A DNA stretch of 24,000 nucleotides from Aneurinibacillus tyrosinisolvens (GCF_001015055.1 NZ_BBWZ01000003.1:116091-140090), one strand, 5' to 3'; positions 6,086-24,000 are shown, counted from the first letter of the stretch. Numbers and translations are program-made. Notes: generated by a model not told the origin, from the sequence alone.

Positions 6086-6330
6086 GAACTACTCGGCACT
6101 GAAGTGCCGAGCTTCTTGTGGGCAGACCTTTCGGTCTGAATTACGTGTAACCACTTGAACTTTTCATGTTTCATCGGCGTCTGCCCAACCCCAAAAAGAG
6201 GTGTGGTACAAGCATTCCTTTCGAAATTCCCATCTTGCCGTGGCTTCAGGGGCTTACAACATCTCCACATGCACACTCCGTCGTTCCAACGGTGGAAGAA
6301 AATAAAATGTATCCATTAGGCTCCGAGAAT
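6086..6330 (-). ncRNA. Probable TnpB omega-RNA (reRNA) scaffold derived from the tnpB 3' end and the right end of the IS
   Basis: By analogy to characterised TnpB systems, the guide-RNA scaffold spans the 3' end of tnpB and the right-end (RE) region. This roughly 230-nt non-coding stretch downstream of the tnpB stop contains stable hairpins (ctcggcac/gtgccgag and cagacc/ggtctg). Boundaries are not determined. Confidence 0.4.
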
Positions 6331-7482: not shown

Positions 7483-7488
7483 AGAGGG

Positions 7489-7905
7489 TTACTCTCCTTT
7501 CTTTTGATTTTCAATATACTGACGAATGGCATCTTCCGATACCGAACCCACGGTTTCCAAATAAAAACTCCGGTTCCACAACGGTCCATTCCCCAATTTT
7601 TTCTTCAGATCAGGATATTCCATAAATAGTTTTCGTGCGGATATTCCTTTCATCATTTTCACTATGTACGAGGGTGCGATTTTAGGATGAGCAGAAACAA
7701 AAACATGAAGATGGTCCTGTTCACCTACTTGGGCTTGATGGACGATAAACTCTTTTTCAGAAGCTGTCTGTTGTAAAATTTCAATCAATCGTTGTTCTAT
7801 TTCTGATGTTAAAACTTTGTTACGATATTTAACAGACCATACCATATGGTAGTTCACATTATATACACAGGTTCTTGCTTTTACTATGTTATTATTCATA
7901 CACAT
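7489..7905 (-). CDS. tnpA: IS200/IS605-family Y1 (HUH) transposase TnpA
   Basis: YHMVWSVKYR, HUH motif HLHVFV, and the catalytic-Tyr helix ...AIRQYIENQ. About 138 aa, typical of TnpA. Confidence 0.93.
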   Translation of the reverse strand: MCMNNNIVKARTCVYNVNYHMVWSVKYRNKVLTSEIEQRLIEILQQTASEKEFIVHQAQVGEQDHLHVFVSAHPKIAPSYIVKMMKGISARKLFMEYPDLKKKLGNGPLWNRSFYLETVGSVSEDAIRQYIENQKKGE

Positions 7906-8094: not shown

Positions 8095-9786
8095 TCAGGC
8101 TTTTTTTACCTCTCCGGTACATACCCGGTTCCGTCCCTGCTGTTTTGCTTTATAAAGCGCCCGGTCAGCCGCTTCGATTAAGGTCATCTGCGAGGCCTCC
8201 TCATCGGGGACAACCCCCGCCACACCAAGGCTAATCGTAACATGGCTGCTCACGGGAGAGAGGAGGTGCGGGATGGCCAGTGCCTCTATCTGCCTCCGCA
8301 GTTGTTCAGCAAGAGCCATCGCACCCTCCAATGCAGTAGTAGGGAGCAGGAGTATGAACTCTTCTCCACCGTAGCGGGCAACAAAATCCCTGGGCCTTTT
8401 TGCCAGCACTTGCAGCGTACGGGCTACCTTTTTTAAGCATTCATCACCTTGGAGGTGGCTGTATGTATCGTTATACGCTTTAAAGCAATCGATATCCACC
8501 ATAATAGCGGAAAGAGGCACGCTGCCAAGGGTGGCACGCTTCCATTCCATGTCCAGGAAATCGTCGAAATAACGCCGGTTCATGATGCCGGTCAAGCCGT
8601 CGATAAAGGAAAGCCTGTGTAATGTTCTGTTCATTTCTTCCAGTTGCATTTCCGCTTTTTTCCGCTCGGTTATATCGCGCAAAGTAAACACCATGCCGGT
8701 AAACACCCCTTCCTGGTTGAACAATAATGTGCTCACCACTTCAAGCCAGACGTAATGCCCGTTTGCATGGCGGCCGCGCAGCTCTCTTCTTCCGGAAAGA
8801 GAGTGACCGGCAGCCATCGCTTTCGTCTCGGCCCGCAAGAGGCGCTTTTCATCCGGGTGAACGAAATCAAATACCGGTTTGCTGAGCATGTCTTTCTCCG
8901 TATATCCGAGGAGACGGTTATGCGCCGGGCTTACGTATGTATAAAGAAAGTGCTCGTCCGTCTCTGCAATCATATCCAGCATATTATCAGTAATCCTGCG
9001 CAAACGTTCTTCGCTTCTCCGCAGGGCTTCCTCCGCGTTCTTTTGTTCTGTAATGTCATGAATCATGACTTGGGTGGCCGGCTTTCCCTCATAACTAATG
9101 GCAGTCGTCGCCACTTCAACGTCAATCTCTTCCCCTTGCAGGGTAATAAACTTCTCCTGTATAAGCAGTATATTCGTCCTGTTTACATAGGATTTATCGA
9201 TACGCTCCCTCACCATGTTTTGATAATCGGGATGGACGAAGTCGAGCACCTGCCTGCCAATGAGTTCGCCTGCATCTTTTGCCCCAAACAGCTTCGCTCC
9301 CGCGTTATTAATAAATAGAAGCCACCCGTCCGCATGGACAGCGATCGGCTCGGAGGAAAACTCAACCAGGCAACGGTACCGCTCATTGCTCTCCCGCAGT
9401 GCGCGCTCTATTCGTTTTTGCTCCGTAATATCCCGCGAGATACCGGCTAATGCGGCCACCTCCCCTTCCTGATCATGGATAGGAGAAATTGTAATGCTTA
9501 TATGAAGAAGAGAGCCATCCCTGCGCTGCCGCTGTGTTTCGAAGTTGGTCACATGTCCGCCGGCCCGCACCTTCTCATAAAGCGCCCGGGTAGATTCTCT
9601 CAGGTAGTGGGGGATAAGCGGGGATGTCGATTGCCCGATGATTTCACCGGCGGGCCAGCCGTACATCTCTTCGAATGCTTGATTCACCTGAAGAATGTTC
9701 GCTTCCAAATCAATGACAATAAAGGCGTGGGTTGTATGGTCGATGAGCGATTCAATACACTTTTTCAAATCGAGTCCTTGTTTCAT
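8095..9786 (-). CDS. PAS-PAS-PAS-GGDEF diguanylate cyclase
   Basis: Three PAS-like repeats are present (each ending ...DITEQK/DITERK). The GGDEF domain has an intact GGEEF (nt 8356-8370) and an RxxD I-site (RPRD) five residues upstream. I place the start at ATG 9786, 8 nt after aaggag; the ORF-track GTG at 9795 overlaps the RBS. Confidence 0.92.
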   Translation of the reverse strand: MKQGLDLKKCIESLIDHTTHAFIVIDLEANILQVNQAFEEMYGWPAGEIIGQSTSPLIPHYLRESTRALYEKVRAGGHVTNFETQRQRRDGSLLHISITISPIHDQEGEVAALAGISRDITEQKRIERALRESNERYRCLVEFSSEPIAVHADGWLLFINNAGAKLFGAKDAGELIGRQVLDFVHPDYQNMVRERIDKSYVNRTNILLIQEKFITLQGEEIDVEVATTAISYEGKPATQVMIHDITEQKNAEEALRRSEERLRRITDNMLDMIAETDEHFLYTYVSPAHNRLLGYTEKDMLSKPVFDFVHPDEKRLLRAETKAMAAGHSLSGRRELRGRHANGHYVWLEVVSTLLFNQEGVFTGMVFTLRDITERKKAEMQLEEMNRTLHRLSFIDGLTGIMNRRYFDDFLDMEWKRATLGSVPLSAIMVDIDCFKAYNDTYSHLQGDECLKKVARTLQVLAKRPRDFVARYGGEEFILLLPTTALEGAMALAEQLRRQIEALAIPHLLSPVSSHVTISLGVAGVVPDEEASQMTLIEAADRALYKAKQQGRNRVCTGEVKKA

Positions 9787-9832
9787 CGTGCGCACTCCTT
9801 GTCTGAAGCTCTTAATTGCTGCTTCTCTTTCT

Positions 9833-9838
9833 ATTATA
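9833..9838 (-). promoter_or_regulatory. Candidate -10 box (TATAAT) for the diguanylate cyclase gene
   Basis: Perfect TATAAT on the minus strand, about 45 nt upstream of the start. No convincing -35. Confidence 0.3.
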
Positions 9839-10062
9839 GTAAATTTTTACTAGGAAATAAGGCGTGATAAGTGAAAAATTATGTAAGCTTTAACAGTTTT
9901 TCAATTACAGAAACATAAAAAGGAGTGATCAATGTACAAAAATACTGCGTATAAATTATAAATCTAGCATTTCCAAATTTAACTTATATTTTTTCTATCA
10001 AACCTGATGTACAGTAGATAGAGAAAAAATAGCCAAGATTAACTAGGGAAGGTAAAATCTAA

Positions 10063-11634
10063 ATGAAAAGAATTGCATCTTTGTCTTTACTCCTTATGCT
10101 TTTATTTACAAGCGCCTGCAGCCCACTGGGTGCAACGCAGGCAAGCGTTTATGAACCGTTTGCTGATATTGGAGCAAGCTTTGCCCGCACGGAAATTATC
10201 AATTTATATAACCAGGGTATTGTTTCAGGGGAGGGTAACCAGCGGTTTGCCCCGAAAAAACCCGTGACAAGAGCTGTCTTTTTGTCTATGCTCACCCGTG
10301 CTCTCCATTTAAAACCGGTGAGTGGGGCGATCCCGGTTTTCCAGGATGTCCCTAAAACACACTGGGCTTATGCGGCCGTACAGGCCGGTGCAATACGCGG
10401 GGTCACTTCCGGGCGAACAGCGGCACAATTTGATCCGGAAAGCCTCGTTTCCAGACAGGAGGCAGCCTCTCTGCTTGTGAAGGCCATCCACGCTTCACCT
10501 GAGGAATTGCTCCTTCCATATACGGATCGAAATGAGATAGCACAGTGGGCAGCTCCGGCGGTAGCGGCAGCGGGGCAGCGAAATCTTATGAACGGATCAG
10601 GTGGGAAATTCCATCCGAACGATTCGTTAACCCGGGAAGAATTGGCTTCCATTTTGTCTCGTTTATTGTCTCAAGAGGACGCAATCCCGGCTTCAGCAGG
10701 AAATCAACCGATACATATGGGCTGGCAGTATCTATCCAGCAGTTCTGCTTATACGCAAAAAGTGACCCAGTCAGGTATCGTCAATACGCTGTCTCCCCGC
10801 TGGTATTTCCTTGAATCTGACGGCAAATTCAGCGACAGTACAGATGCATCGCAAATCACATGGGCAAAGCAGCATGGGAAAAGCATCTGGGCTATGGTCG
10901 GGAACCGGTTTGATGATAAAGCGACACATCAAATGCTGATCCAGGCCGATAAGCGCGCGGCGGCTGTCCGCCAGCTTGCACAATACGGACAGAAATACCA
11001 GCTCGACGGATTGAACATTGATTTTGAAAACATAAAGCCCGGAGACAGGGACGCTTTTACATCGTTTATTGCCGAGCTTGCAGCGGCTCTTCATGCGGAC
11101 AACCGTAAACTTTCCGTCGATGTGCCGCCGGATCTGGGAACGGACTGGAGCGATCCGTATCATTATGCTTCTCTCGGGAAGTCTGCGGATTACGTTGTCG
11201 TTATGGCGTATAACGAATACTGGTCAGGCCAGGGAAAGCAGGGCTCCACTTCCTCGCTGCCATGGCTGAAAAAACACGTTCTAAAGCTGACACAGCAAAT
11301 GCCGGCAAACAAAATTATCGTTGCCCTGCCTTTTTATACGAACGATTGGTGGAAAGAGGGAGGGCAGGTTAAGTCGGAAGAGCTGACCATACAGGAAGCG
11401 GTGAAGCGGGTGGAACAGCGCCATGCAACAGTGCGATGGGACCCGGCAGCGGGCCAGTACATCGCTTCATATTATGCTAACGGGCAGCAGCATACAATCT
11501 GGGTAGAGGACAGCCGTTCTTTATCGCTAAAGTACCGGACCGTTATGGGAATGGGCGTTGCAGGTGCGGCGTACTGGTATATAGGTGCTGAAAGCCCGGA
11601 TGTATGGCCTGCAGTTAGCAATGAGCTCCATTAG
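10063..11634 (+). CDS. Secreted/lipoprotein-like SLH-SLH-SLH-GH18 cell-wall hydrolase (YdhD/YaaH-type GH18 domain)
   Basis: Signal peptide MKRIASLSLLLMLLFTSAC, then three about 55-aa SLH repeats (FADI..., FQDV..., YTDR...). The GH18 domain carries DGLNIDFE (nt 11005-11028). Confidence 0.9.
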   Translation: MKRIASLSLLLMLLFTSACSPLGATQASVYEPFADIGASFARTEIINLYNQGIVSGEGNQRFAPKKPVTRAVFLSMLTRALHLKPVSGAIPVFQDVPKTHWAYAAVQAGAIRGVTSGRTAAQFDPESLVSRQEAASLLVKAIHASPEELLLPYTDRNEIAQWAAPAVAAAGQRNLMNGSGGKFHPNDSLTREELASILSRLLSQEDAIPASAGNQPIHMGWQYLSSSSAYTQKVTQSGIVNTLSPRWYFLESDGKFSDSTDASQITWAKQHGKSIWAMVGNRFDDKATHQMLIQADKRAAAVRQLAQYGQKYQLDGLNIDFENIKPGDRDAFTSFIAELAAALHADNRKLSVDVPPDLGTDWSDPYHYASLGKSADYVVVMAYNEYWSGQGKQGSTSSLPWLKKHVLKLTQQMPANKIIVALPFYTNDWWKEGGQVKSEELTIQEAVKRVEQRHATVRWDPAAGQYIASYYANGQQHTIWVEDSRSLSLKYRTVMGMGVAGAAYWYIGAESPDVWPAVSNELH

Positions 11635-11643
11635 GAAAGGAAC

Positions 11644-11672
11644 GCCGTGGGATTTTTCTCACGGCATTTTTT
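11644..11672 (+). terminator. Rho-independent terminator between the convergent GH18 genes
   Basis: gccgtggg / ctcacggc stem followed by attttttg. Confidence 0.7.
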
Positions 11673-11673
11673 G

Positions 11674-12942
11674 TTATTTAATAACGCGGAAGTTTTTCTG
11701 CATATAAGACCAGTTCTGCGGAAACGGATAATTCAGGTGCCAGAATGTTGCCCCACGCAGCCGGTACACTTCCATTATTCTATATTTGGCCCGCAGGCTG
11801 CGGACGTCCTCAAACCAGACGATTCTCGCCTGCGTTCCCTGTGTGTACTGAAAAAACGGCGCTTCCGCCTGCCAGTTATATTGGATGGAAACCCTTTTGC
11901 TGATTGCCAGGTTCTGGGCGTCACCCGCCGCCAGAGCGCTTGCTGTCGTAGCAGGTGTATCCGGAAGCGGCCAATTATAACCATAGAATGGAAGTGCGAT
12001 CATGACTTTGCTCCGGTTTATCTGGCTTACTATATATTGAACGACTTGCTCAACCCACCAGATCGGAGCGATCGGGTTCGGGGGTCCCTGCGGATAGCCG
12101 TATTCAATCGTCATAACGGCCACAAGGTCGGCGATCTGGCCGATCGTCTTGTAGTCGAACGCCCCGGTGAGCCGGTTTGCAGGATCGTCCTTCGTTTTCG
12201 CAGGGACATTAATGTGCAGGGTGCCCGTGCCAGGCGCAGCTTTAAGTTCACGCAGGAAGGTGCTGAGCTCGGGTCTTCTTTCGGGTGGGATAAACTCAAA
12301 ATCAACACTGATCCCGTTATAGCCCTTCTGCTGTACTGCTCGGGAAATGTTTCGCACAAGCGTCCGCCTGGTGTCCGGGTTTTGAAGCACCTGGCCGATT
12401 CGCACCGGATCGAAGCCGCTTCCTGTCCAGTTTGTCAGAACCATAAGTGGTTTAACACCGTTTTGTTTACTTTCACGAATGGCCCTTTCATCGTCCGGTT
12501 CATTTACCGTTCCATCCGCATTAATCGTGTAGCTGAAAATCGCCGTGTAAGAAAGCTGCCTCGCCACTTCAGGAAAAATAGGATGAAGAATGTCCATTTC
12601 CTCCGGGATAAGGAATCCAAGTGATTCCATGGAATATTTTAGCGGTGTTGGAACGGAGAGCCGCTGTCCGACGGTAAGCTGGTTTGGATTTGTTCCGGGG
12701 TTTGCAGCCGCGATTAGATTTGTGCGTGTACGGTAGCGGTTGGCGATGCTCCACAGCGTATCACCCGGTTGTATTTGATAGAACTGTTCAGGTAATTCGT
12801 TTTGTGGAAGATAAAGGGCGAGCCCGGGGACGAGTGAATCGCCTGGAAGGCCATTTATCTTGCGTATCGTCTGAATAGGCAGGCGGAAGGTTTGTGAGAT
12901 TCCCCATAGTGTGTCCCCCCTTTTAACTGTATAAACTCCCAA
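11674..12942 (-). CDS. sleL: LysM-LysM-GH18 spore cortex-lytic N-acetylglucosaminidase, SleL/YaaH-like
   Basis: Two LysM repeats (YTVKRGDTLWGIS..., YQIQPGDTLWSIA...), a GH18 core ISVDFE, and C-terminal blocks recalled from B. subtilis YaaH (QYNWQAEAPFFQYT, VWFEDVRSLRAKY, FPQNW). I place the start at TTG 12942, 8 nt after ggaaaggag; the ORF-track extension to 13089 runs through a terminator. Confidence 0.9.
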   Translation of the reverse strand: MGVYTVKRGDTLWGISQTFRLPIQTIRKINGLPGDSLVPGLALYLPQNELPEQFYQIQPGDTLWSIANRYRTRTNLIAAANPGTNPNQLTVGQRLSVPTPLKYSMESLGFLIPEEMDILHPIFPEVARQLSYTAIFSYTINADGTVNEPDDERAIRESKQNGVKPLMVLTNWTGSGFDPVRIGQVLQNPDTRRTLVRNISRAVQQKGYNGISVDFEFIPPERRPELSTFLRELKAAPGTGTLHINVPAKTKDDPANRLTGAFDYKTIGQIADLVAVMTIEYGYPQGPPNPIAPIWWVEQVVQYIVSQINRSKVMIALPFYGYNWPLPDTPATTASALAAGDAQNLAISKRVSIQYNWQAEAPFFQYTQGTQARIVWFEDVRSLRAKYRIMEVYRLRGATFWHLNYPFPQNWSYMQKNFRVIK

Positions 12943-13031
12943 CTTATTCGCTCCTTTCCCCACGATTAATGCAAAAGCACCCATTTCTATGGTAAAGCAT
13001 ATGCCTGAATCCGGGAAAAGGAACCACCTCA

Positions 13032-13086
13032 AAGGAAAAAGAAAACACCCTAAACTCTGGTTCCAATCGTCGAGTGCTAGGGTGTT
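13032..13086 (-). terminator. Terminator of the 13092..13403 gene
   Basis: On the minus strand: aacacccta(g)...(t)tagggtgtt stem (13044-13053 / 13077-13086), followed by ttctttttcc, starting 5 nt after the stop. The loop is large. Confidence 0.55.
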
Positions 13087-13091
13087 CATTT

Positions 13092-13403
13092 TTATTTTGG
13101 TAAGACCAGCACCTGATTTCGCAGCGCCCTCTTAAGTTCCCTTTTTAGTTTTGGATCAACCGATTGCTCATTCATAATGCGCTGGTAGCCGTCTCGAACC
13201 CAACGCCAGGGAATGGCGCGGTTTTCTTCTTTGGCAGTTTGGATGACTTCAATATAATGGCGGACATTCTGGTTCGTCAGCGGTTTGCCGAGCAGTTCCC
13301 GGGTTACATACTCCACCATTCGTTTTTGTTTATCCTGGTGGGTGATATACGAGAAAACAATAACCGTCGTTAGCATAGCAACAATGCTGAGAAATCCCAT
13401 CAT
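13092..13403 (-). CDS. Hypothetical membrane-anchored protein (about 103 aa)
   Basis: One N-terminal TM segment (FLSIVAMLTTVIVFSYI) and a basic C-terminal domain. I place the start at ATG 13403, after gaaagagg, rather than at 13490. Confidence 0.55.
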   Translation of the reverse strand: MMGFLSIVAMLTTVIVFSYITHQDKQKRMVEYVTRELLGKPLTNQNVRHYIEVIQTAKEENRAIPWRWVRDGYQRIMNEQSVDPKLKRELKRALRNQVLVLPK

Positions 13404-14554: not shown

Positions 14555-16276
14555 TCACGGGTTAACGCCCCCGGTCACACTGTCTCCGCCGTTATCGACG
14601 GGAGGCAGCGGATTGTTCGGATCAGAAAGGTTCGGATCCGAAGGCACACTGCTATTGCCGCTGTCAGACGGCGGCGGATTCATCTGAACCGAGTTTGGAT
14701 CCTGCAGCCCATTATTTCCACCCTGTTCACTCCCGGGAATACCCGCAGCTGGGGCCGTAGGATAACCGCCTGCCGGGGAGGATGGGTCACTGCTGCCTGT
14801 GTATTTCGGCCCGCTGAACTTATATTCCCCGTCCAGCGGTTCGTAATAAGCCAGCTGGCCCGCGCCTTCGCCTGCTGGATTGTTTACGACCATTACACCT
14901 GGGCTTTCCATATAGAAACTATCGGCCTCAAACGCAAAGATTTGCTTAAAATCAGATTCATGAACCTCAAAGCCGGCAAACAGCGATGCACGATTGTCTG
15001 ACTGTGCTTCGACAACGATGACCGGCAATCCTTCCGGGCTAATCTTTTCCTGGGTATAAAGCGTTTTTGGGACTATTCCCTCGCCTAAGGCTCCTTCCAC
15101 TGTTTTGAAGCCATCGGAGAGGAGGCTGCCATAGTATAATTTACTGTCATCAGAGATGGCTGCCACAAACGATTTTGCGCCCCACCGGTTTTTCCCGTCT
15201 GTCGTAAACGTGAATCTCTTGTCCGGAAATTCACGCTGCAGAAGCCGGACAGGCTGCTGCTCATCCCATTTCTGCTGGGCTAACGCAATTTCCCCGCTTG
15301 TATCCTGATACGGTTTTAGCTTTTCATAAAGATCGATCGCTTTACTGAAGCTGTTCTGTGTGGCAAACCGTTTCGCTTTAGCAAGCAAACTTTTAATTGT
15401 TCTCTTAATGTACCCAAGTGTACCGGAGCCGGAAGGGTAGTATTCCTTCAGTTCTTCATATTTTTTTGCGTGTTCCGCAAAATCGGCGATATTATTTTGG
15501 CGCAGGTCTTTTTCCAGGACGCTTCGGCCAAACCTATTTACCGCTGTAAGCAGCCAGGGAACAGCGATTGAATTTTCTTTGTATATTTTCAGCGTAAGTT
15601 CAGTTTTATTCATTGTCTCGGCAAATTTTCTGCTGCTGCTGAGATAGCTGAACTTTGTCAGCTCGTATTTTTTAAGCTGCGCCTGCATCTCCTGTGTTTT
15701 CTTCTTTTCGCCTCCGAAGTATTGGGAGGGGATCTTAAAATAAGAGAGGAGAAAATCTTCCTTATCATAATTTTTACTCTTGATATTTTCTTTCATCTGG
15801 CCGACAAATCGCGCTTTTGCTTCCGCAAAGGATTTGGCCAGGCTGTTTTCCATCGTGTAATACTTTATCGCCTGGTTGAACATCTCTTTGTTTTTCTTAT
15901 CCAAGGTGCCGGATTTCTGTTTCTGCTCCTGATACCCGGCGTATGCCTGAAGCAGGAGAGGGAAGTCGCCTGTTTCTCTGGCCAGCATAGCCTGCTCTTT
16001 TAACAGCCGTATGCGCCGGACAGGATCCAGAGCGGATAAAGCTTGCTGGATCCTGTCCTCTTTATAGTCAATCGTTCTGTTTTCTTCCGCCTTCGTAAAA
16101 TACTGCTCAGCCAGTACCATGTTGTTCTGTTTCATATATTTCTCCGCTTGCGTGTAGGCGGAAATTTTCATTGAGGTATTGTACAGTTTGTAGCCGGCGG
16201 CCGCAAGAGCGAACAGAAAAGCAACAATAAGTACATTTCTTATCATGATTGTTTTTCTGGGGGATGGTAAAACCAT
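14555..16276 (-). CDS. Membrane-anchored hypothetical protein, 573 aa, with a Pro/Ser/Gly/Asn-rich C-terminal tail
   Basis: N-terminal basic stretch plus a TM segment (IRNVLIVAFLFALAAAGY), a long helical-then-mixed ectodomain, and a low-complexity tail over the last about 85 aa. RBS agaaggga; the gene starts 14 nt after the upstream gene's stop. Confidence 0.8.
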   Translation of the reverse strand: MVLPSPRKTIMIRNVLIVAFLFALAAAGYKLYNTSMKISAYTQAEKYMKQNNMVLAEQYFTKAEENRTIDYKEDRIQQALSALDPVRRIRLLKEQAMLARETGDFPLLLQAYAGYQEQKQKSGTLDKKNKEMFNQAIKYYTMENSLAKSFAEAKARFVGQMKENIKSKNYDKEDFLLSYFKIPSQYFGGEKKKTQEMQAQLKKYELTKFSYLSSSRKFAETMNKTELTLKIYKENSIAVPWLLTAVNRFGRSVLEKDLRQNNIADFAEHAKKYEELKEYYPSGSGTLGYIKRTIKSLLAKAKRFATQNSFSKAIDLYEKLKPYQDTSGEIALAQQKWDEQQPVRLLQREFPDKRFTFTTDGKNRWGAKSFVAAISDDSKLYYGSLLSDGFKTVEGALGEGIVPKTLYTQEKISPEGLPVIVVEAQSDNRASLFAGFEVHESDFKQIFAFEADSFYMESPGVMVVNNPAGEGAGQLAYYEPLDGEYKFSGPKYTGSSDPSSPAGGYPTAPAAGIPGSEQGGNNGLQDPNSVQMNPPPSDSGNSSVPSDPNLSDPNNPLPPVDNGGDSVTGGVNP

Positions 16277-16290
16277 AGCAAGCGTCCCTT

Positions 16291-17034
16291 CTAAAAGAAT
16301 CCTGAAAAGTCAGGATCAAAATCGTATTTCGCTTTAACCAAAGCTTTCGTCCGTAAATAGAGCTCCTCCCAACCGTCGGAGGGGTGAGCCGTGACCAGCT
16401 TGCAGAGCCGCAGAACTCTTTCCTTTGGCAGGTACTCCATATAAGCAACAATAAAGTCTTTATAGCGGTCGACATACGGCTTCATACGCAGTGCCGCGCC
16501 GGCCATGTTTGTAAGAATATCCCGGCCGTTCTCCTGGAGAGCAATATGATGGCAGTGGACAACGGCATAATCAAGCATGCTTTTTTTAATCAGTTCTTTT
16601 TTCACTTTGGAAACTTCCCAGGCGTAGTTAACAAAATCTTTATCATAAGAGGACGGGATGAGCGTTTCCAGCTCCAAATCCATATCTTTGCGGAGCACAA
16701 AGTGATTCAGGCACATGACTTTGCGAATTTTTATCGTATCATTGATGAGAAAACGGCCGACCTCCCGCAATTTTTCATAACTTTCTTTATACCGTTCTTC
16801 TTTAACATCCGTTACGGCGGAAGTGCTGTCCAGCAGTAGTCCTTCCTTAATTCGATAAGCCTCGCTCGTCAGCCATGCTTTATACTGCACGGTTTGTTCA
16901 TAAGGTGCGAATCTTTTATGCAGAAAAAGGTAGCCGATAAGCAATCCGATTCCGATTACAGCGCCAAGGACAAGCTCAAGCAGTGTGCCGGCGAGAACAA
17001 TGCCAAGGCAGAGAAGAATAGATACGATGAGCAA
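16291..17034 (-). CDS. Hypothetical TM protein, 247 aa as called; probably the C-terminal part of a frameshifted gene
   Basis: Begins at a TTG with no RBS and runs straight into a double TM segment. Its frame stays open upstream to a TGA at 17077-17079, next to the T3 run. Confidence 0.7.
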   Translation of the reverse strand: MLIVSILLCLGIVLAGTLLELVLGAVIGIGLLIGYLFLHKRFAPYEQTVQYKAWLTSEAYRIKEGLLLDSTSAVTDVKEERYKESYEKLREVGRFLINDTIKIRKVMCLNHFVLRKDMDLELETLIPSSYDKDFVNYAWEVSKVKKELIKKSMLDYAVVHCHHIALQENGRDILTNMAGAALRMKPYVDRYKDFIVAYMEYLPKERVLRLCKLVTAHPSDGWEELYLRTKALVKAKYDFDPDFSGFF

Positions 17035-17231
17035 ATCGATATGGAGCTTCGCCTGCTTACGGTATGTAATAAAGCTTCAATCGGTATGAATGTATGCTGT
17101 TTTCCGCAGGCAGCGCACGTATCCTCCCACAGGACGGAATAATTGCCGCAGGCTTTGCATTGCCTAAGGCGCTGGAAAGCATGGGATGTCTTTTCGCTCT
17201 TTCTAAATTGGACAGGCATTTTGTTCCTCAT
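16956..17231 (-). CDS. Zinc-ribbon protein fragment; only about the first 52 codons look genuine
   Basis: CKACG-x10-CAACG zinc ribbon. The ATG overlaps the stop of the 48-aa ORF (ATGA). After about nt 17071 the translation turns into low-complexity S/L/C-rich sequence overlapping the next ORF. Confidence 0.55.
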   Translation of the reverse strand: MRNKMPVQFRKSEKTSHAFQRLRQCKACGNYSVLWEDTCAACGKQHTFIPIEALLHTVSRRSSISICSSYLFFSALALFSPAHCLSLSLAL

Positions 17232-17374
17232 GATTTATCACGCTCGTTGTTCAGCATGGCAATCAGGCTGTCGTCGACTTCTTTGAGAGATACTTGGTTT
17301 TTTTTGTAGTTATAGAGAACCCTGAATTTGTTGGCGATAAATAGCCCAATCAGGGCCAGCGTAATATATGTCAT
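17228..17374 (-). CDS. Membrane micro-protein, 48 aa (below the ORF-track cut-off)
   Basis: My translation is MTYITLALIGLFIANKFRVLYNYKKNQVSLKEVDDSLIAMLNNERDKS*. RBS aaggtgg lies about 9 nt upstream of ATG 17374. The stop overlaps the next start in an ATGA overlap. Confidence 0.6.
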   Translation of the reverse strand: MTYITLALIGLFIANKFRVLYNYKKNQVSLKEVDDSLIAMLNNERDKS

Positions 17375-17491: not shown

Positions 17492-17521
17492 TTTACAAGA
17501 AGTCCCACGAATCATTATAAA
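17492..17521 (+). promoter_or_regulatory. Candidate promoter of the vWA/tubulin-like operon
   Basis: TTTACA (17492-17497), 18-nt spacer, TATAAA (17516-17521), about 90 nt upstream of the start. Confidence 0.4.
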
Positions 17522-17611
17522 TCGGGGGAACTCGTTTTTCCAGTATTTAATAGATTCATAATTTTTTCGCTAGTGTGCAAGTTTTGATAACCGAATGTGG
17601 AGGTACTCATC

Positions 17612-19384
17612 ATGTTTTGCCTGAGAAAAAGCACCAAATATCCACTGCTGCTCTTGCTCGCCTTGCTTTTTCAATTGTTTTGTATTCCATCTGCTTATGC
17701 CGCACCGGCGATGAAGTCAAATATTGACGCAGTCCTCGTTGTAGACGTGAGCGGCTCGATGAATGCAAGCGATAAAAATAAAGTAAGCAATGAAGCGATG
17801 AAGATGTTTGTGGACATGTCTTCCCTGCAGGGAGATAAAATCGGGGTTGTTGCTTATACCGACCAGGTTGCACGGGAAAAGGCACCGATTACAATCACTT
17901 CAGAGCAGGATAAAAACGAAATCAAATCGTTTATTAATAAACTGGAAAACCGCTCCTTTACCGATATTGCCGTGGGGGTAAAAGAAGCGGTTAAAATTCT
18001 TGAATCGGGCCATGATCCGTCCCATTATCCAATGGTTGTCCTGCTGGCGGACGGCAACAATGCGCTCGATCCGAAATCGGGGCGAACCCAGCAGCAATCC
18101 GACCGGGAAATGCAGCAGGCAATCCAAACCGCGAAGGCAAACGCCTTTCCTATTTATACGATTGGGCTAAATGCGGACGGTAAGCTGAATAAAACCGTGC
18201 TTGAGAAAATCGCGGCGGAAACGGACGGCAAATTTTTCATGACGAACACAGCGGACTCACTTCCTAAAATCCTGAGTGAGATTTTTGCCGATCACTTGAA
18301 GTTGAAGGTCGTTCCTCTAAAAAGCCTGGTAGCAAACGGACAGTTTCAGGATGTGACCATTTCCATCCCCAATTCAAATGTGCTGGAAGCTAACATTTCC
18401 CTTATGTCGACCCAGCCTGTAGAAGCGAAACTGTTTGATAATACGGGGCAGGAACGAAAAATTCCATCCAGCAATGTATACTACTCGAAATCGAATGCCT
18501 ATTCGCTGATTAAACTGGTCAAACCTGCTTATGGTGATTGGAAACTGAAAGTAAAAGGAATCAATCAGAACAAAATCGACATTAATCTCGTCTTTAACTA
18601 TGACCTTGAATTAAAGATGGACCCGCTGCCGGCGAAAAAGTACAGCGCAGGAGATACAATCAAGGTAAATGCTTCCTTTGAAACAAATGGAGCGAAGGTA
18701 GCGAACCCGGATTTGTATAAAAATATCAAATCCGTGCTGCTAGTAACAGACTTGCAGACGAAGCAGGTACATAAGATAGATTTACATAACACAGGAACTG
18801 CCTTTACAGGAGACTTCAAACTTCCGGAAGCCCACAGCTATGAAGTGAAAGTACGGGCTGAAGAAAAAAGCTTTTACCGGGAGACACAGCCGGTGACCAT
18901 TACCGCAGGACAGGGAGCGACCGGCGTGCAGGCGGCAAAGCAGCCGGTTGAAAAACCGTTCCCCTGGATGCTTACCATCGGCAGCATTCTCGGTCTGCTG
19001 CTCGTGGCGGCGCTCGTTATTTTCCTCCTTTCCGTGGTGAAGAAAGCAAACAAAGGCTTTACAGGGCAGCTGGCTATCGAAATTCGCGATGAAAACACGG
19101 GTGAAAAAACGAGCCCCCAGTATAAAAAACTGCATGCTTTCAAAGGAAAGGTTAAGCTGCACCAGCTTCTGCAGCTCGCTCCGGAGTTTGCCGAAACCGA
19201 TAAAATTGTCTTCTTTCCGGGCAGAAATGACACGGTTATCTTAAAGAACAATTCTGCCTGTGTTATTGAAAAAGCGGGTCGGGCGCTCGATGCAAGCAAA
19301 GGGATTGAATTGAAGAACAACGACCGCATAAGAATTTCGCTGCAGAGTATTGAAAAATCCATCTCTTTAGAATTTATTTTGTAG
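17612..19384 (+). CDS. Secreted vWA (MIDAS) domain, beta-rich ectodomain, single TM, cytoplasmic tail protein
   Basis: Signal peptide ...CIPSAYA/AP. MIDAS DVSGS (nt 17744-17758), plus a downstream T (FTDIAVG) and D (LLADGNN). TM segment WMLTIGSILGLLLVAALVIFLLSVV, then about 110 aa more. I place the start at ATG 17612, 8 nt after ggagg, rather than at GTG 17597. Confidence 0.9.
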   Translation: MFCLRKSTKYPLLLLLALLFQLFCIPSAYAAPAMKSNIDAVLVVDVSGSMNASDKNKVSNEAMKMFVDMSSLQGDKIGVVAYTDQVAREKAPITITSEQDKNEIKSFINKLENRSFTDIAVGVKEAVKILESGHDPSHYPMVVLLADGNNALDPKSGRTQQQSDREMQQAIQTAKANAFPIYTIGLNADGKLNKTVLEKIAAETDGKFFMTNTADSLPKILSEIFADHLKLKVVPLKSLVANGQFQDVTISIPNSNVLEANISLMSTQPVEAKLFDNTGQERKIPSSNVYYSKSNAYSLIKLVKPAYGDWKLKVKGINQNKIDINLVFNYDLELKMDPLPAKKYSAGDTIKVNASFETNGAKVANPDLYKNIKSVLLVTDLQTKQVHKIDLHNTGTAFTGDFKLPEAHSYEVKVRAEEKSFYRETQPVTITAGQGATGVQAAKQPVEKPFPWMLTIGSILGLLLVAALVIFLLSVVKKANKGFTGQLAIEIRDENTGEKTSPQYKKLHAFKGKVKLHQLLQLAPEFAETDKIVFFPGRNDTVILKNNSACVIEKAGRALDASKGIELKNNDRIRISLQSIEKSISLEFIL

Positions 19385-19399
19385 GAGGGCATTTACACC

Positions 19400-22300
19400 G
19401 TGAAAGCCGTTGTGAGAGAACATATCCAGCAGTTAGATGTTTCCCTGGGCGGGGGCATTGTCAGTGAAAAAATTCGTGTGGACACGATTGATAACCCGAT
19501 GCTCGTCATCGGAATCGGCGGAACAGGCATCGATGCCCTGCTTCGTTTAAAATACCAGGTAAATCGCAGATTCAAACTGCCGGAAGACCGGCTGTCTAAG
19601 AAAAAGAAAGAGAAGCCGGATAACATCGAGTTCATTGCATTTGAAACAAACGAACACGACCGCAACAAGAAATATAAAGGACTCGGGCTTGATCCAATCA
19701 CGGAGTTTGTCCTGCTATCCAATGCAGAAATCGGCGGGCTGCTGCAGAATCGCAGCATACTGGAGCCGTACATCACAGACTGGCTTTCTCCTGAACTGAT
19801 TATTACGGATGGGATCGGAGGCGCTTCAGGAATCAGGCAGGCGGGCAGGCTGCTCTTATTTACAAAAATTACTCAGGTTGTACAGACGATTGAGAAGAAA
19901 ATCAGGGCGCTCTCCGAAGGAACGAATAAAAAACTGACCGTATTTATTTTATCCGGACTGTCCGGCGGGACCGGAAGCGGCTGCTTCCTTGACATCTCGT
20001 ACATTGTGCGGGGGATTATGGAGAAGGAGCATGGCAGCGCGGGAGTAGACAGGGTCAACATTCTCGGGTATATGTTTACGCCGGATGTGAACTTATCAAA
20101 TAAAAGCTTAAGCACGCATGCGAGTGAATACATAAAGAAGAACGGATATGCGGCGTTAAAAGAACTTGATTACTGGATGAATGTGGATGAGCGCGGCGAG
20201 CGGTTCAAACAACAGTACGGTAACATTCTAACGGTAAACTCACCCATGCCCCCCTTCAACCTGTGCCACCTCATTTCCGCTACCAACCTGGAAGGCAAAT
20301 CGCTGGAAAATGCGTACGACTACTGCATGAATGTAACAGCCGAGAACATTACTAACTTCATGGCTAACGAGGAAAAGCAGTCCGGAGAAGAGTTCGCGAT
20401 CCATGATTACATTAGCAATATCCGGACAAATATTAATCAAATGCCAAAGGCATATGCCGCAAACTACCAGTACAACATCATTGGCGCTTCTTCCGCCGTG
20501 CTTCCAATTGAGGAAATGACCACATATCTTGCGTATAAACTGTTTAAGAAGATGGAGAAGATGTTCGCGATTGTGCCTGGCCAGGAGGAAACGGAGAGGC
20601 TGGCCAGAAGGCTGGGCATCGACATTGATTCGGTGCATCGTAAGTTCCAGGAAAGAGTCCCTGAACCGCTTCCGGGCTACCAGAACAGTGAGAGATTAAA
20701 TTATAGCAATGTTGTGAAGCAGCAAATTATCAATATGGATACCGAGCTGGAGCAGAACTACTTATCAAGGGCGCGGGAAGAATATATCAAATGCAAAAAA
20801 CAGTTGCCCGGGGAACTGGTTGCCGCTTTCTCCGAACAGATGACGAAGATTTTCCTTCATCCTGAGCAGGGGCCGTTCTATGCTTCACGCATCATTTACT
20901 CGGAAAAAGGCTTCAGTTTGCTGAAGATGATTTCTTCCTACATTGAGAGTTTAAAAGAGAGCAGGGAAAGAATCCCGCGCGATATTCATTCCGCCGGGGA
21001 ATTCGCTCATGAGCGGATGGGGGATGCAAGGAGCGCCTTCATTTCGAAAGAGAAGAAGAAGAATGTGTACATTGAAGCGAAAATTAATGAATACGACCTC
21101 CGCGCCGATCTGGAGAGAACAGAGCAGATGATTGATTTCTACGAGGATTTATCCAATCTGTTAAACAGGGAAAATTCTCGTATTTACCAGGTATTTACCG
21201 AAATTCTGAATGCACTGAACCAAATTTTTGAGAAGAACGGCGATATTCTGATTAGCGGACAGGAAGAACTGGACCGCGGCGGCAATAAAACGTACTACTG
21301 GAACATCGTAAGCGTACCTGACATCGCCAAAGTTATCGGCGATATACTGGATGATCGAAATGCGGACGATTTGATTCGTGAGTTTACAACAGAATTGCTA
21401 AATCGCTCAGACAAATGGGTGAAGGAGCAGGAAGTAGATATTATCAGTTCCATTTCAGACTTCCTGACAGAAGAATTCGGTGATCTAATTACAAAATCAA
21501 TGGAAGACTTCATCATGATTAAGTATGGCGAGGATGAATCGATTGAACGGATTGTGGAACGGAAAATTGCCGACAAGCTGAATGAAGAAGCCATTCCTGT
21601 TTTCCACCTGAGCAACAGTTCCGGCAACCTGCACTTCCCGTCATGGGGCTTTGTTTCCGTGCCAGTAAAGGCGCCGAATATCTTAAAAGGAATTAAAAAC
21701 TATCAAAACACGGCGGTCACACAGTCACGGTTTACCGTGAAAGAAAGTGAAGTAAAGAACCGGATTTTCTGGTTGAATACGAAAAACGGCATTCCATTGT
21801 TCGTCTATACGCCGCTCAAGGTATACGAGGAAAGCTATGAAAAAACGATCCTTGATAAAGAAGGAATTGGCCGCCATCTTGTACAGACGGAAAGGAACAA
21901 CTGGACGTATCTTCCATCCCCAATTCCAGAAAAATCGTGGGGCGACATTTATGAAAACAGGCGGGTGAAAGAATTCAATATCCGGATGCGTGAGCTATTC
22001 AATTCGGCCATCGCGCTCGGATGTATCGCCCAGAAGAACATCGACGCGAATACAAGCAACCGGTACGAGTGTATCATTACGAAGCCGTTTGAGCTTTCCC
22101 GTGTTCTAGCTAAGTACAACATGCAGCTGGATCAAATGAAGCCCAATTTGGCTGAAGTAAAAAAATGTACGTCCGAGTTAAAGGCCTTACTAAACGGAGG
22201 ACTTGAAAGAGAAGGCGTCAGGGATATCTTTGGCAGTGTTAATGAAGAGATGGCGAAGGAAAACCTTATCCGTTCTCCAGAGCTCGTTGCCCTGGTGCGG

Positions 22301-22789
22301 CAAGAAGTCCGTAAATATGAAGAAATCCGGCAGAAGGCGGAGGAACTTGAGAAGGTTCTTGCCTCCTTTGAAGGAGAAGATGAATTGTTCGAACAGTTTA
22401 TCGAAGCAATGTACACCGGCAGCATCTGCAAAAAAGGAGCGCTTTATGTGTATGACAAAGATGCGGATGAAGACGCATGGGAGCCGTTTGTTAATTTAAC
22501 CAAAACAAATCAGTTTATTGAATACGCGATTTTTGAACAGTTCCGTAATTTGGACGCGAAGCGTATGAATACGCTGCGTAAAAAATCGAGCAGACGCAAT
22601 GCGGAGCTGACCGCTTCAGAGGATGTGAACGGGTTAGTTGCCACCATCGAGGAATTGGCCGCCGCATTCCAGGAGAATAAATCCGCGCTCGATTACGACC
22701 GGGATGAAATTGTAAACGGAGAAGAAATGTACCATTTCTATAAGCAGGTATCAGGCAAAGTAAACGCGATGGTAAAAACGCTAAAATAG
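19400..22789 (+). CDS. Giant tubulin/FtsZ-superfamily-like GTPase, 1129 aa
   Basis: MLVIGIGGTGIDAL (G-I-G-G-T-G at nt 19511-19528) and VFILSGLSGGTGSGCF (S-G-G-T-G-S-G at nt 19961-19981, matching the tubulin/FtsZ signature GGGTG[ST]G). A C-terminal extension of about 800 aa is charged and helical. GTG start 11 nt after ggagg, which overlaps the upstream stop. Confidence 0.88.
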   Translation: MKAVVREHIQQLDVSLGGGIVSEKIRVDTIDNPMLVIGIGGTGIDALLRLKYQVNRRFKLPEDRLSKKKKEKPDNIEFIAFETNEHDRNKKYKGLGLDPITEFVLLSNAEIGGLLQNRSILEPYITDWLSPELIITDGIGGASGIRQAGRLLLFTKITQVVQTIEKKIRALSEGTNKKLTVFILSGLSGGTGSGCFLDISYIVRGIMEKEHGSAGVDRVNILGYMFTPDVNLSNKSLSTHASEYIKKNGYAALKELDYWMNVDERGERFKQQYGNILTVNSPMPPFNLCHLISATNLEGKSLENAYDYCMNVTAENITNFMANEEKQSGEEFAIHDYISNIRTNINQMPKAYAANYQYNIIGASSAVLPIEEMTTYLAYKLFKKMEKMFAIVPGQEETERLARRLGIDIDSVHRKFQERVPEPLPGYQNSERLNYSNVVKQQIINMDTELEQNYLSRAREEYIKCKKQLPGELVAAFSEQMTKIFLHPEQGPFYASRIIYSEKGFSLLKMISSYIESLKESRERIPRDIHSAGEFAHERMGDARSAFISKEKKKNVYIEAKINEYDLRADLERTEQMIDFYEDLSNLLNRENSRIYQVFTEILNALNQIFEKNGDILISGQEELDRGGNKTYYWNIVSVPDIAKVIGDILDDRNADDLIREFTTELLNRSDKWVKEQEVDIISSISDFLTEEFGDLITKSMEDFIMIKYGEDESIERIVERKIADKLNEEAIPVFHLSNSSGNLHFPSWGFVSVPVKAPNILKGIKNYQNTAVTQSRFTVKESEVKNRIFWLNTKNGIPLFVYTPLKVYEESYEKTILDKEGIGRHLVQTERNNWTYLPSPIPEKSWGDIYENRRVKEFNIRMRELFNSAIALGCIAQKNIDANTSNRYECIITKPFELSRVLAKYNMQLDQMKPNLAEVKKCTSELKALLNGGLEREGVRDIFGSVNEEMAKENLIRSPELVALVRQEVRKYEEIRQKAEELEKVLASFEGEDELFEQFIEAMYTGSICKKGALYVYDKDADEDAWEPFVNLTKTNQFIEYAIFEQFRNLDAKRMNTLRKKSSRRNAELTASEDVNGLVATIEELAAAFQENKSALDYDRDEIVNGEEMYHFYKQVSGKVNAMVKTLK

Positions 22790-22814
22790 CCTGACTTCCT
22801 CGGGAGGAAGAGCG

Positions 22815-24000
22815 ATGAGGAATTTAGTAAAGCAGTTTTCTGAGCAGTATGCTGCCGATATGGATAAACAAACGTACAGCACGGATGAGCAGCGGAGCCT
22901 TCATAATCCAATCGTATTTCTTTTTATCGGGGATAGGACGCTTGATGCGCTAAACGCGATGTATGAACTGAATGCAACCAAGTGGAACAACAGCACAGGC
23001 GTACTGTACGCGCATATTTACTCCACCAAAACAGCGGAAAGAACAAACGTATACAGCTTCCGGATTGAAGAGCCGGCGGAAGACAAAAAGCAGCTGCGCA
23101 GGCGTGTATACGAGCAGTTTTACGAAAACGAGAGCAGGCTTATCGAACTGAACCGGATGATGAGGCAGGTGAGCAGCCGGGTCTCCGAATTCGGGAACAT
23201 GTATTCTTCGTTTGAGCGGATGAACGTAGCGGTCGTAACCCGGGCGGACGATCCGTTAAATGTACTTCTGCCTGAGATCACTCTGCTCATGAAAAATGTT
23301 TTTAGTGAATCGTTCAGAATTGTAAACCTCGATTTATATACGCTTATTAAAGAAAAAACAGCCGGGGAAGACTTTGCTTTCACTTCTTCCCTTGGTGTTA
23401 GTTTTTTGCGGGAGATAGAATACTACCAGGCCGAAAACTATCGTTTTCACGAAATGCTGCAGGTTACGGAGGACCATATTAAGCTTCCTGTGGAGCACCC
23501 TCCGTCACCTCTTTTTGATCTCGTTTATTTATTGAGTGACAGGGATGAACGAGGCATCATTATGGAGCACAGCATGGAAACAAATTACGAGATTATTTGC
23601 AGTATTAACCTGTTGAAAAACAGGAAAGCAGTGACAAATCCGGGCGAAAACAATGCCAGCTACAGCAATATACAGTTTAAGCGAAACATCCATCCGGAGT
23701 CTGGCCGAACGGCCTATGCTTCCGCTGGCTTTGCTAAAGTAAAACGTCCAAACCGCACGATTGCGCTTACGGTTCTTCTTTATTTCTATGAAACGGTCAT
23801 TGATAGACTGAAGCAGTGTGCAAGTCTGGATAAAAAACAGGTGCTTGAGCTGTTTGAACTCGCTGGCCCCTCTTTGGGCGGGAAGCTTCGTTCTTTCGTA
23901 CCCGGAGAGGAGCGGATTGAGGAGATGACGAGCCTAATGCCGATGCGGGCTTCGTATACTGAACTGAAAAAACTGACACTTCGGCAGGCGGAGGAGAGGC
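22815..24000 (+). CDS. Hypothetical protein, 3'-partial (over 395 aa); likely a degenerate paralogue of the tubulin-like protein
   Basis: Not in the ORF track because it has no stop inside the window. I translated it by hand from ATG 22815 (RBS gggaggaag), and the frame stays open to nt 24000. Its N-terminal blocks parallel those of the upstream protein, but the Gly-rich nucleotide-binding motifs are replaced. Confidence 0.8.
   Translation, partial: MRNLVKQFSEQYAADMDKQTYSTDEQRSLHNPIVFLFIGDRTLDALNAMYELNATKWNNSTGVLYAHIYSTKTAERTNVYSFRIEEPAEDKKQLRRRVYEQFYENESRLIELNRMMRQVSSRVSEFGNMYSSFERMNVAVVTRADDPLNVLLPEITLLMKNVFSESFRIVNLDLYTLIKEKTAGEDFAFTSSLGVSFLREIEYYQAENYRFHEMLQVTEDHIKLPVEHPPSPLFDLVYLLSDRDERGIIMEHSMETNYEIICSINLLKNRKAVTNPGENNASYSNIQFKRNIHPESGRTAYASAGFAKVKRPNRTIALTVLLYFYETVIDRLKQCASLDKKQVLELFELAGPSLGGKLRSFVPGEERIEEMTSLMPMRASYTELKKLTLRQAEER

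Follow-up and report, generated by a model that had tools for sequence, protein, structure and literature searches.

An operon that joins a von Willebrand factor A (vWA) protein to a very large FtsZ-like protein was described by Makarova and Koonin (Biol Direct 2010; PMC2875224), who, for the latter (FtsZl1, equivalent to the Pfam family Tubulin_2), noted in the same operon vWA proteins with a signal peptide or transmembrane (TM) segment and an intact metal ion-dependent adhesion site (MIDAS) together with a divergent GTPase, and proposed a function in membrane remodelling. Subsequently Kaur, Burroughs, Iyer and Aravind (eLife 2020; PMC7159879) named the DO-GTPase and its partner GAP1 and reported Firmicute GAP1-N2 neighbourhoods which contain two tubulin-domain genes fused to coiled coils and two vWA genes, one with an additional YtkA-type domain and one polytopic with its vWA domain outside; these were interpreted as nucleoside triphosphate-dependent conflict systems. 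According to Santana-Molina et al. (2023; PMC9871819) the Tubulin_2 proteins are a divergent outgroup. In this work a stretch of 24,000 nucleotides (nt) from Aneurinibacillus tyrosinisolvens (NZ_BBWZ01000003.1, 116091 to 140090), referred to as the window, was analysed, the last part of which (from nt 17492) carries three genes that a first-pass annotation had put forward as an undescribed system. This novelty has to be given up, since the locus matches the published descriptions point by point: the vWA/FtsZl1 operon was published in 2010 and the full Firmicute combination in 2020, and the cluster is thus this operon in its Firmicute tubulin theme, already known as a computational prediction. 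About ten genes make up this conserved chromosomal cluster, which occurs in endospore-forming Firmicutes and of which the window contains the 5' two-thirds; that it is chromosomal and strongly conserved is a detail that may be new. The reading that we favour, with moderate confidence, is that this known cluster encodes an envelope-spanning sensor coupled to a GTP-regulated assembly of FtsZl1 and its paralogue, pseudo-FtsZl1, at the membrane.

The genes of the main operon that lie in the window are the following.

17612 to 19384 (alternative start 17597), plus strand: vWA1, a type-I membrane protein, recognised by its open reading frame (ORF), Pfam VWA match, MIDAS, TM segment and tail.
19400 to 22789, plus strand: FtsZl1 (Pfam Tubulin_2), 1129 amino acids (aa), recognised by its PF13809 match, its fold (AlphaFold2 and Foldseek) and its motifs.
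22815 to beyond 24000, cut by the end of the window, plus strand: pseudo-FtsZl1, a tubulin/FtsZ fold without nucleotide-binding motifs, recognised by hhalign and by its fold (AlphaFold2 and Foldseek).

The three genes are co-directional and separated by gaps of 15 and 25 nt, exactly as first annotated. The ORFs are long and more than 80 genomes contain homologues, which is far more than chance would produce. A scan of species-representative genomes recovered 80 related loci in which FtsZl1 is 60-81% identical over all 1129 residues, in Brevibacillus, Paenibacillus, Cytobacillus, Bacillus, Peribacillus, Cohnella, Saccharibacillus and a Clostridiaceae metagenome-assembled genome (MAG). Identity to the FtsZl1 of the window is 69-81% in Paenibacillus and Brevibacillus and 60-69% in the Bacillus-type genera and the Clostridiaceae MAG, the closest relative being that of Paenibacillus sp. 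1P03SA (81%). In this last locus (10001-13391) a frameshift or an assembly error has divided the gene into ORFs 10001-12040 and 11946-13391, which overlap. An identical layout of ten features was found in 65 of the 80 loci, with contig ends cutting most of the other layouts, so that the co-occurrence of the trio across genomes that had been put forward for checking is now established. The possibility that the three genes stand together by accident and form no functional unit can be regarded as practically nil: it is refuted by the same order and orientation in these 65 loci, which belong to several families, and by the two short gaps.

The trio does not by itself make up the functional unit, as had been thought; the operon has seven genes, the trio accounting for no more than its first third, and upstream of it lies a conserved divergent operon of three genes. 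The main operon in the relatives comprises vWA1, FtsZl1, pseudo-FtsZl1, a polytopic vWA2, a 211-aa protein, DO-GTPase and GAP1-N2, and the divergent operon a 48-aa TM peptide, a protein with a Zn-ribbon and two TM segments, and a TM-anchored, wall-facing protein. In one related locus (L001), gene 3 is followed by the polytopic vWA2, a 214-aa protein without known domains, the DO-GTPase and a GAP1-N2/GAP1-M protein. The genes for vWA2, DO-GTPase and GAP1, which would lie beyond the window end here, are found in 76, 77 and 77 of the 80 loci, respectively. The MIDAS of vWA2 is kept in 76/76; the L001 copy of DO-GTPase matches PF19993 and PF19975 above cutoff, with a P-loop in 76/76; and GAP1 of L001 matches GAP1-N2 (E 1.1e-48) and GAP1-M (E 9e-29). 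In 71 of 75 cases GAP1 ends in a TM segment with a polar tail behind it, which is 34-336 aa long. No Pfam or PDB relative of the 211-aa protein was found, and its equivalence to an FNIII component was not confirmed. Median identities to the proteins of the window or of L001 are 72% for FtsZl1, 70% for DO-GTPase, 57% for vWA1, 47% for the 211-aa protein, 43-45% for gene 3, 44% for vWA2, 34% for GAP1 and 28% for the 573-aa protein that closes the divergent operon. Outside the boundaries of the cluster no further universally conserved neighbour was present in the related loci: flanking genes are common only within species groups, where the flanks are stable, and differ between clades, and the genes flanking the cluster in the window are not common to the other loci.

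Compared with the vWA/FtsZl1 operon of 2010, the locus shares an FtsZ-like N-terminal domain with T1 and T4 loops in a protein of about 1000-1100 aa, which probably continues in an extended helical or coiled-coil part and ends in alpha-helices, an adjoining vWA protein with intact MIDAS, the lack of a cell-division context and, to judge from the relatives, a divergent P-loop GTPase in the operon. With the Firmicute tubulin theme of the GAP1-N2 DO-GTPase system it has in common two adjacent genes that combine a tubulin domain with a probable coiled-coil extension, a vWA gene whose product has a further beta-rich domain and, to judge from the relatives, a second, polytopic vWA and a DO-GTPase with Zn-ribbon cysteines; it differs from the published system in that DO-GTPase, GAP1 and vWA2 lie past the end of the window and are placed here from the relatives. 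The motif-less paralogue and the upstream divergent operon receive no mention in the passages of the 2010 paper that treat this family, nor do the genes for the 48-aa peptide, the Zn-ribbon protein and the TM-anchored protein in the corresponding text of Kaur et al. (2020).

The FtsZl1 gene starts with a GTG codon preceded by GGAGG, and the N-terminus MKAVVREH... is common to all orthologues. Its assignment to the tubulin/FtsZ superfamily is borne out by Pfam Tubulin_2 (PF13809), which matches aa 35-385 with an E-value of 1.6e-79 (268.2 bits against a cutoff of 27) and over positions 1-354 of the 356 in the profile; the Tubulin profile PF00091 gives a sub-threshold match placed exactly at the T4 loop. 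Both motifs on which the assignment was first based are present where they had been located, namely the T1 signature GIGGTG at aa 38-43 (nt 19511-19528) and the T4 signature SGGTGSG at aa 188-194 (nt 19961-19981), and both are kept in 77 of 78 orthologues. Residues G40, G41 and G43 of T1 are at least 90% conserved even among relatives at 22-35% identity, and G189, T191, G192 and G194 of T4 are invariant in 34 diverse homologues. The FtsZ-like GTPase domain (approximately aa 30-390) is followed by a charged, probably helical region (about aa 430-730), a conserved, probably globular region (about aa 730-870) and a presumably helical C-terminus; the segments aa 431-730 and 871-1129 are charged and poor in glycine and proline, consistent with the published extended helical architecture. 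The less charged block at aa 731-870 (21590-22009 in the window) shows a mean conservation of 0.81, compared to 0.6-0.7 in the flanking regions, and carries the motifs HLSNS..FPSWGFVSVP..RIFWLNTKNG..NWTYLPSPIPEKSWGD. This block, which is not described in the 2010 account of the family, probably represents a separate globular domain. No FtsZ_C match was found by Pfam on the 1129 residues of FtsZl1, canonical FtsZ having about 400 aa.

Since a search of PDB sequences with a hidden Markov model of the N-terminal domain returned no relative, only one chance match at E 0.18, the comparison had to be made at the level of the fold. An AlphaFold2 model of aa 1-430, built on an alignment of 34 homologues at 22-85% identity, reached a mean predicted local distance difference test score (pLDDT) of 79 and a predicted template modelling score of 0.74. 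Foldseek against the PDB gave 212 matches at E <= 1e-3, of which the top 20 were all FtsZ and which also included CetZ; among the FtsZ matches, S. aureus FtsZ 6yd1 has E 1.6e-7 and probability 1.00, with 313 columns aligned to a target of 305 residues. The N-terminal domain, for which the lack of any profile or structural similarity to tubulin/FtsZ had been considered, is thus similar to this fold by both Pfam and Foldseek. The alignment of the model covers both FtsZ subdomains, the C-terminal one included, whereas in the relevant passages of the 2010 paper the family could not be aligned past helix H5; that a model of FtsZl1 aligns with both subdomains, over about 313 FtsZ columns, may be a new detail. 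Directly after the predicted helix H7 (aa 239-260), at the position of the FtsZ T7 loop, stands N261-V-D263-E264, which is invariant or nearly so within the Firmicute clade. As N-V-D-E is not kept in distant Tubulin_2 proteins, we rate it as a candidate catalytic T7-like loop only. Mean column identity of the GTPase domain is 87% across Paenibacillaceae, Bacillaceae and a Clostridiaceae MAG; conservation over the whole domain is what would be expected of a self-assembling protein, and this surface-wide pattern in the alignment fits FtsZl1 being one.

With FtsZ the protein shares the fold, the GGTG of T1 and GGTGSG of T4, and an N-x-D-E loop after predicted H7, but it differs in an identity of only about 15%, large inserts between T1 and T4, a size more than three times greater and the absence of FtsZ_C or a C-terminal peptide. 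It also differs from FtsZ in its surroundings, being paired with a GTP-blind paralogue and membrane vWA proteins and standing outside the division and cell wall (dcw) cluster: the neighbours are vWA and unrelated genes, with no dcw genes among them, in agreement with the initial description.

Gene 3, annotated initially as a motif-less paralogue running past the window, has held that description. Its 395 aa inside the window give no Pfam match and contain no GGxG-type motif; the orthologues are 772-855 aa long. BLASTP of gene 2 against a gene 3 orthologue gave no significant match, and the paralogy therefore rests on profile-profile alignment, a weak Pfam match and the fold. By hhalign, the N-terminal parts of the gene 3 and FtsZl1 families match at E 9.1e-7, and the full-length alignments at E 3.2e-6 over 350 collinear columns (gene 3 aa 162-539 against FtsZl1 aa 198-580); the full-length orthologue in L001 matches Tubulin_2 weakly (E 9.7e-4). 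The AlphaFold2 model (pLDDT 71) retrieved from the PDB by Foldseek first TubZ 3v3t (E 7.6e-5), then B. cereus TubZ, gamma-tubulin, CetZ and tubulins. Gene 3 is a paralogue of gene 2, in which the nucleotide-binding loops have been lost. In the aligned S1-T1-H1 stretch it has VFLFIGDRTLDAL where FtsZl1 has LVIGIGGTGIDAL, at the T4 position VTRADDPLNVL in place of LSGLSGGTGSG, and it keeps the LRELD helix without the N-V-D-E loop that follows it in FtsZl1. The motif GG[TS]G occurs in just 4 of 78 orthologues. When the profile of the gene 3 family was run with HMMER against 1.84 billion representatives (E <= 1e-3), a small family of 118 clusters was obtained, and none of the 113 sequences retrieved from these matches carried a T4 signature. 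Because the motifs are missing uniformly across the family, gene 3 is, as judged from its sequences, an old, maintained and GTP-blind pseudo-paralogue, not a recently decayed copy. That this pseudo-paralogue has lost T1, T4 and the T7-like loop altogether is a further detail that may not have been reported before.

The arrangement bears comparison with two other groups of tubulin relatives. TubZ and PhuZ share with it a divergent tubulin/FtsZ fold, TubZ being the best structural match of gene 3, but here the genes are chromosomal and have no TubR or centromere context (no DNA-binding partner of the TubR type is present in the cluster), and gene 3 has no nucleotide-binding loops. Alpha/beta-tubulin and BtubA/B are likewise encoded as two adjacent paralogous tubulin-fold genes, an adjacency which, by analogy, points to a heterodimer as the building block, its two subunits taking unequal parts in catalysis; both tubulins bind GTP, however, and here one partner lacks T1, T4 and the T7-like loop.

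The same observations bear on an explanation without polymerisation, in which the tubulin fold of FtsZl1 serves as a signalling GTPase. The protein would then be a switch or scaffold under GTP control, and its coiled-coil regions would keep it permanently paired with the pseudo-paralogue as a heterodimer. The 2010 analysis, in the part that deals with FtsZl1, could not identify T6-H7 in the family and regarded a function other than filament formation as possible, though less likely (PMC2875224); moreover, the acidic T7-like loop is not conserved in the wider Tubulin_2 family, and no GTP or T7 motif is left in the paralogue, on whose side a homotypic longitudinal interface could therefore not be catalytically complete. 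Against this, the model covers both FtsZ subdomains, N261-V-D-E is (near-)invariant within the clade, and the 87% conservation over the surface exceeds what a simple switch usually needs. We consider such a non-polymerising role quite unlikely.

The translation of vWA1 preferably starts at ATG 17612, where GGAGG is located 9 nt 5' of the codon. As in the first description, the product has a signal peptide, an intact MIDAS, a beta-rich ectodomain, one TM segment and a cytoplasmic tail. The signal peptide (aa 1-30, numbered from this ATG) has a hydrophobic N-terminus and ends in AYA|AP; Pfam VWA matches aa 39-221 (E 4.8e-17), and the MIDAS is composed of D45-V-S47-G-S49, T117 and D147, which are invariant across 26 aligned orthologues, the site as a whole being kept in 75 of 76. 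Beyond the vWA domain the ectodomain consists of a beta-rich region of the beta-sandwich type (about aa 230-440), for which weak MG2 or hemicentin beta-sandwich matches were obtained in 19-25 of the 26 orthologues, and then of a variable linker. No YtkA domain was detected on the ectodomain with Pfam, and the YtkA domain reported in 2020 was thus not reproduced. The single TM segment (about aa 452-476) is followed by a cytoplasmic tail of 114 residues (aa 477-590), for which Pfam gave no match and an FHA-like fold can at most be suspected. In the alignment of 26 sequences the tail is densely conserved and the linker and TM segment are variable, which argues that the tail may bind a conserved cytoplasmic partner; the conserved tail itself is a detail that may be new. 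With integrins, an analogy only, vWA1 shares a MIDAS A-domain set on beta-sandwich 'legs', a single TM segment, a short conserved tail and a gene placed beside that of a cytoskeletal-type protein, but there is no homology beyond the vWA domain, and signalling across the membrane would be by analogy only.

The divergent operon upstream of vWA1 comprises the following genes.

17228 to 17374, minus strand: 48-aa single-TM peptide, sequence MTYITLALIGLFIANKFRVLYNYKKNQVSLKEVDDSLIAMLNNERDKS, with positional homologues found by tblastn.
16291 to 17231 (ORFs 16956 to 17231 and 16291 to 17034), minus strand: protein with a Zn-ribbon, two TM segments and a cytoplasmic helical domain, frameshifted in the window.
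14555 to 16276, minus strand: 573-aa TM-anchored protein with a polar low-complexity C-terminus, the last gene of the operon.

The gene of the 48-aa peptide has AAGGTGG upstream as a strong ribosome-binding site, and its TGA stop codon overlaps the ATG of the Zn-ribbon gene (ATGA). With tblastn, some 45 related loci were found to have a positional homologue directly upstream of the Zn-ribbon gene, with E <= 0.05 in about 30, including that of the Clostridiaceae MAG, where the module is inverted, and because of these homologues the ORF is probably a real small membrane protein of the cluster. In the relatives, the Zn-ribbon protein is encoded by one ORF of 311-389 aa (typically about 315 aa), which is matched by both ORFs of the window in 71-77 of the 80 loci; its N-terminus has the pattern CxxC...CxxC and matches Zn-ribbon profiles weakly. 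When the orthologue from L001 was aligned to the window with tblastn, the reading frame of the match changed from -2 to -1 between 17064 and 17037, at a site with no homopolymer run. The 573-aa protein has a TM segment at aa 8-33 and a large region predicted to be extracytoplasmic; 72 of the 80 loci have an identically placed and oriented homologue (about 590 aa in the relatives), and its C-terminal modules vary, with SH3_3 in 4 and NTF2_YvbJ in 2 of 19 orthologues and the polar low-complexity tail in the window. These three upstream genes, the 48-aa peptide included, are again details that may be new.

Taken together, the favoured reading of an envelope-spanning sensor coupled to a GTP-regulated FtsZl1/pseudo-FtsZl1 assembly would work as follows. 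Outside the cell, a ligand or the cell wall would be contacted by the two MIDAS vWA domains together with the polar GAP1 tail and the C-terminal modules, variable between species, that the 573-aa protein carries. The signal would cross the membrane through the conserved tail of vWA1 and a switch formed by the membrane-anchored GAP1 and DO-GTPase, and inside it would control the GTP-dependent self-assembly of FtsZl1 at the membrane. Since T1, T4 and the T7-like loop are absent from it, the GTP-blind paralogue would not be a second enzyme; it would act without catalysis, as a co-subunit, a cap or an adaptor. What results would be a filament or scaffold close to the membrane, by which the envelope is remodelled or reinforced. 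FtsZl1, pseudo-FtsZl1, DO-GTPase and GAP1-N2 are accordingly predicted inside and the vWA domains, beta-sandwiches, SH3 and NTF2 modules and polar tails outside. In favour of this reading, catalytic and binding motifs are kept almost everywhere while the exposed parts (GAP1, the 573-aa protein) evolve fast. The putative coupling between an extracellular MIDAS and a cytoplasmic GTP-dependent assembly, suggested already by the first-pass annotation, is compatible with the conserved tail of vWA1. A more elaborate version would be an 'outside-in' link from receptor to cytoskeleton, in which integrin-like vWA1 and vWA2 gate a polymer of an obligate heterodimer of FtsZl1 and nucleotide-free pseudo-FtsZl1, with DO-GTPase/GAP1 as a checkpoint and the divergent operon as an integral part; taken as a whole this appears rather unlikely.

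Several points weigh against the sensor-coupled assembly. To the missing T6-H7 of the 2010 study and the variability of N-V-D-E in distant Tubulin_2 proteins are to be added the modest TM-scores of the FtsZl1 model against FtsZ (0.36 by query, 0.49 by target), and the polymerisation of FtsZl1 and a contact between it and the vWA1 tail are predicted only. The operon past nt 24000 is unseen in this genome and is deduced from the relatives, an exact-sequence look-up with the gene 2 product having returned no recorded contig. The frameshift in the Zn-ribbon gene may be a real inactivating mutation, in which case the system may be impaired in this genome, or a sequencing error. Finally, no experimental study of any component (DO-GTPase, GAP1-N2, Tubulin_2/FtsZl1 or tubulin-like defence) was found in the literature searched, which agrees with the initial statement that the gene combination has no experimentally defined function.

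Whichever way FtsZl1 works, its biological role was addressed by considering the surroundings of the cluster and its distribution. One explanation, which follows the 2020 prediction for this architecture (PMC7159879, in the passages on these neighbourhoods), is a system of biological conflict against phages or other invaders, where the surface modules would sense the invader, DO-GTPase/GAP1 would act as a threshold switch, and assembly of the tubulin-like effector would block the invader or arrest the cell. The constant core beside fast-evolving exposed modules (the GAP1 tail, the C-terminal modules of the 573-aa protein, the vWA1 linker) and the flanking genes, which vary between clades, are in line with it. 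It should be noted, however, that the six window products gave no match in PADLOC-DB v2 at E <= 0.01 (and only generic vWA matches in an NCBIfam scan), and that the upstream neighbours are metabolic, wall-hydrolase and signalling genes and one IS200/IS605 element, with no recognisable defence gene among the neighbours in the window and no recognisable toxic effector domain. Moreover, no relative was found in 50,697 phage records and just five distant matches, at 25-27% identity and on megaplasmids, in 72,556 plasmid records; the flanks are stable within species groups, and the identity of FtsZl1 across families (60-81%) is unusually high for an immune effector. A conflict system is thus possible, although we are doubtful of it.

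Much of the same evidence can be read in favour of a housekeeping or developmental cytoskeleton that remodels the membrane, as hypothesised in 2010, during sporulation, envelope growth or repair, or colony behaviour, the vWA proteins then being anchors to wall or matrix and not sensors of invaders. The synteny is strict and the purifying selection on FtsZl1 and on DO-GTPase (the latter at 70% median identity) strong, the cluster is chromosomal and has no phage and only distant plasmid relatives, and FtsZl1 identity falls from Paenibacillus and Brevibacillus to the Bacillus-type genera and the Clostridiaceae MAG in the steps given above. Paenibacillus, Brevibacillus, Bacillus, Cytobacillus, Peribacillus, Cohnella and Clostridiaceae are known as endospore-forming groups, so that all of the named hosts belong to groups of this kind, and SH3-type wall-binding modules are present on orthologues of the upstream 573-aa protein. 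Against this explanation stand the lack of sporulation or dcw genes consistently adjacent to the cluster, the variable exposed modules, which are more typical of arms-race interfaces, and the report that not all Firmicutes have the system (Kaur et al., 2020, in the part on this theme; PMC7159879). Promoter scans were uninformative, the promoter and terminator scan of the window giving nothing above shuffled expectation. We regard a housekeeping role as a serious possibility which falls only somewhat short of an even chance; defence and physiology are rated about equal, and overall we lean slightly towards a conserved role in envelope surveillance or remodelling.

This locus is no new kind of system, it is one ordinary member of a published cluster. 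FtsZl1 is nevertheless among the most divergent members of the tubulin/FtsZ superfamily, and 16 years after its description the literature searched contained no experimental study of its function. The cluster unites three things rarely found together in bacteria: MIDAS receptors at the surface, a GTPase of the tubulin fold accompanied by a pseudo-enzyme twin, and a further GTPase as a switch. Functional proof would reveal a cytoskeletal function or a form of immunity, new in either case. Since the hosts, of the Paenibacillus and Brevibacillus type, are cultivable, the question is approachable.

The rest of the window encodes an NAD synthase, an epimerase, an aldo-keto reductase, two MaoC dehydratases and a DsbD-like protein; no Rfam family and no tRNA gene was found in it. 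An IS200/IS605-type element occupies 6316-7905 on the minus strand, with the Y1 transposase TnpA at 7489-7905 and TnpB, which has OrfB_IS605 and Cas12f-like TNB domains, at 6316-7482. Upstream of the cluster there follow a PAS-PAS-GGDEF diguanylate cyclase (8095-9795, minus strand) and two GH18 wall hydrolases, one with SLH repeats (10063-11634, plus strand) and one with LysM repeats (11674-13089, minus strand); these GGDEF and GH18 genes (8095-13089) are not conserved beside the cluster in the other loci. Conserved non-coding motifs, which are not present in the intergenic region of the window itself, were observed approximately 70-150 nt upstream of vWA1 in many Paenibacillus loci (L012, L017, L033, L069 and others). 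Their positions relative to vWA1 are about -147 for AGTGGAATTTTAC, -128 for TAATATG, -112 for TTAGTAGA and -72 for TTTTACTAC, and they may represent a promoter with operator repeats.

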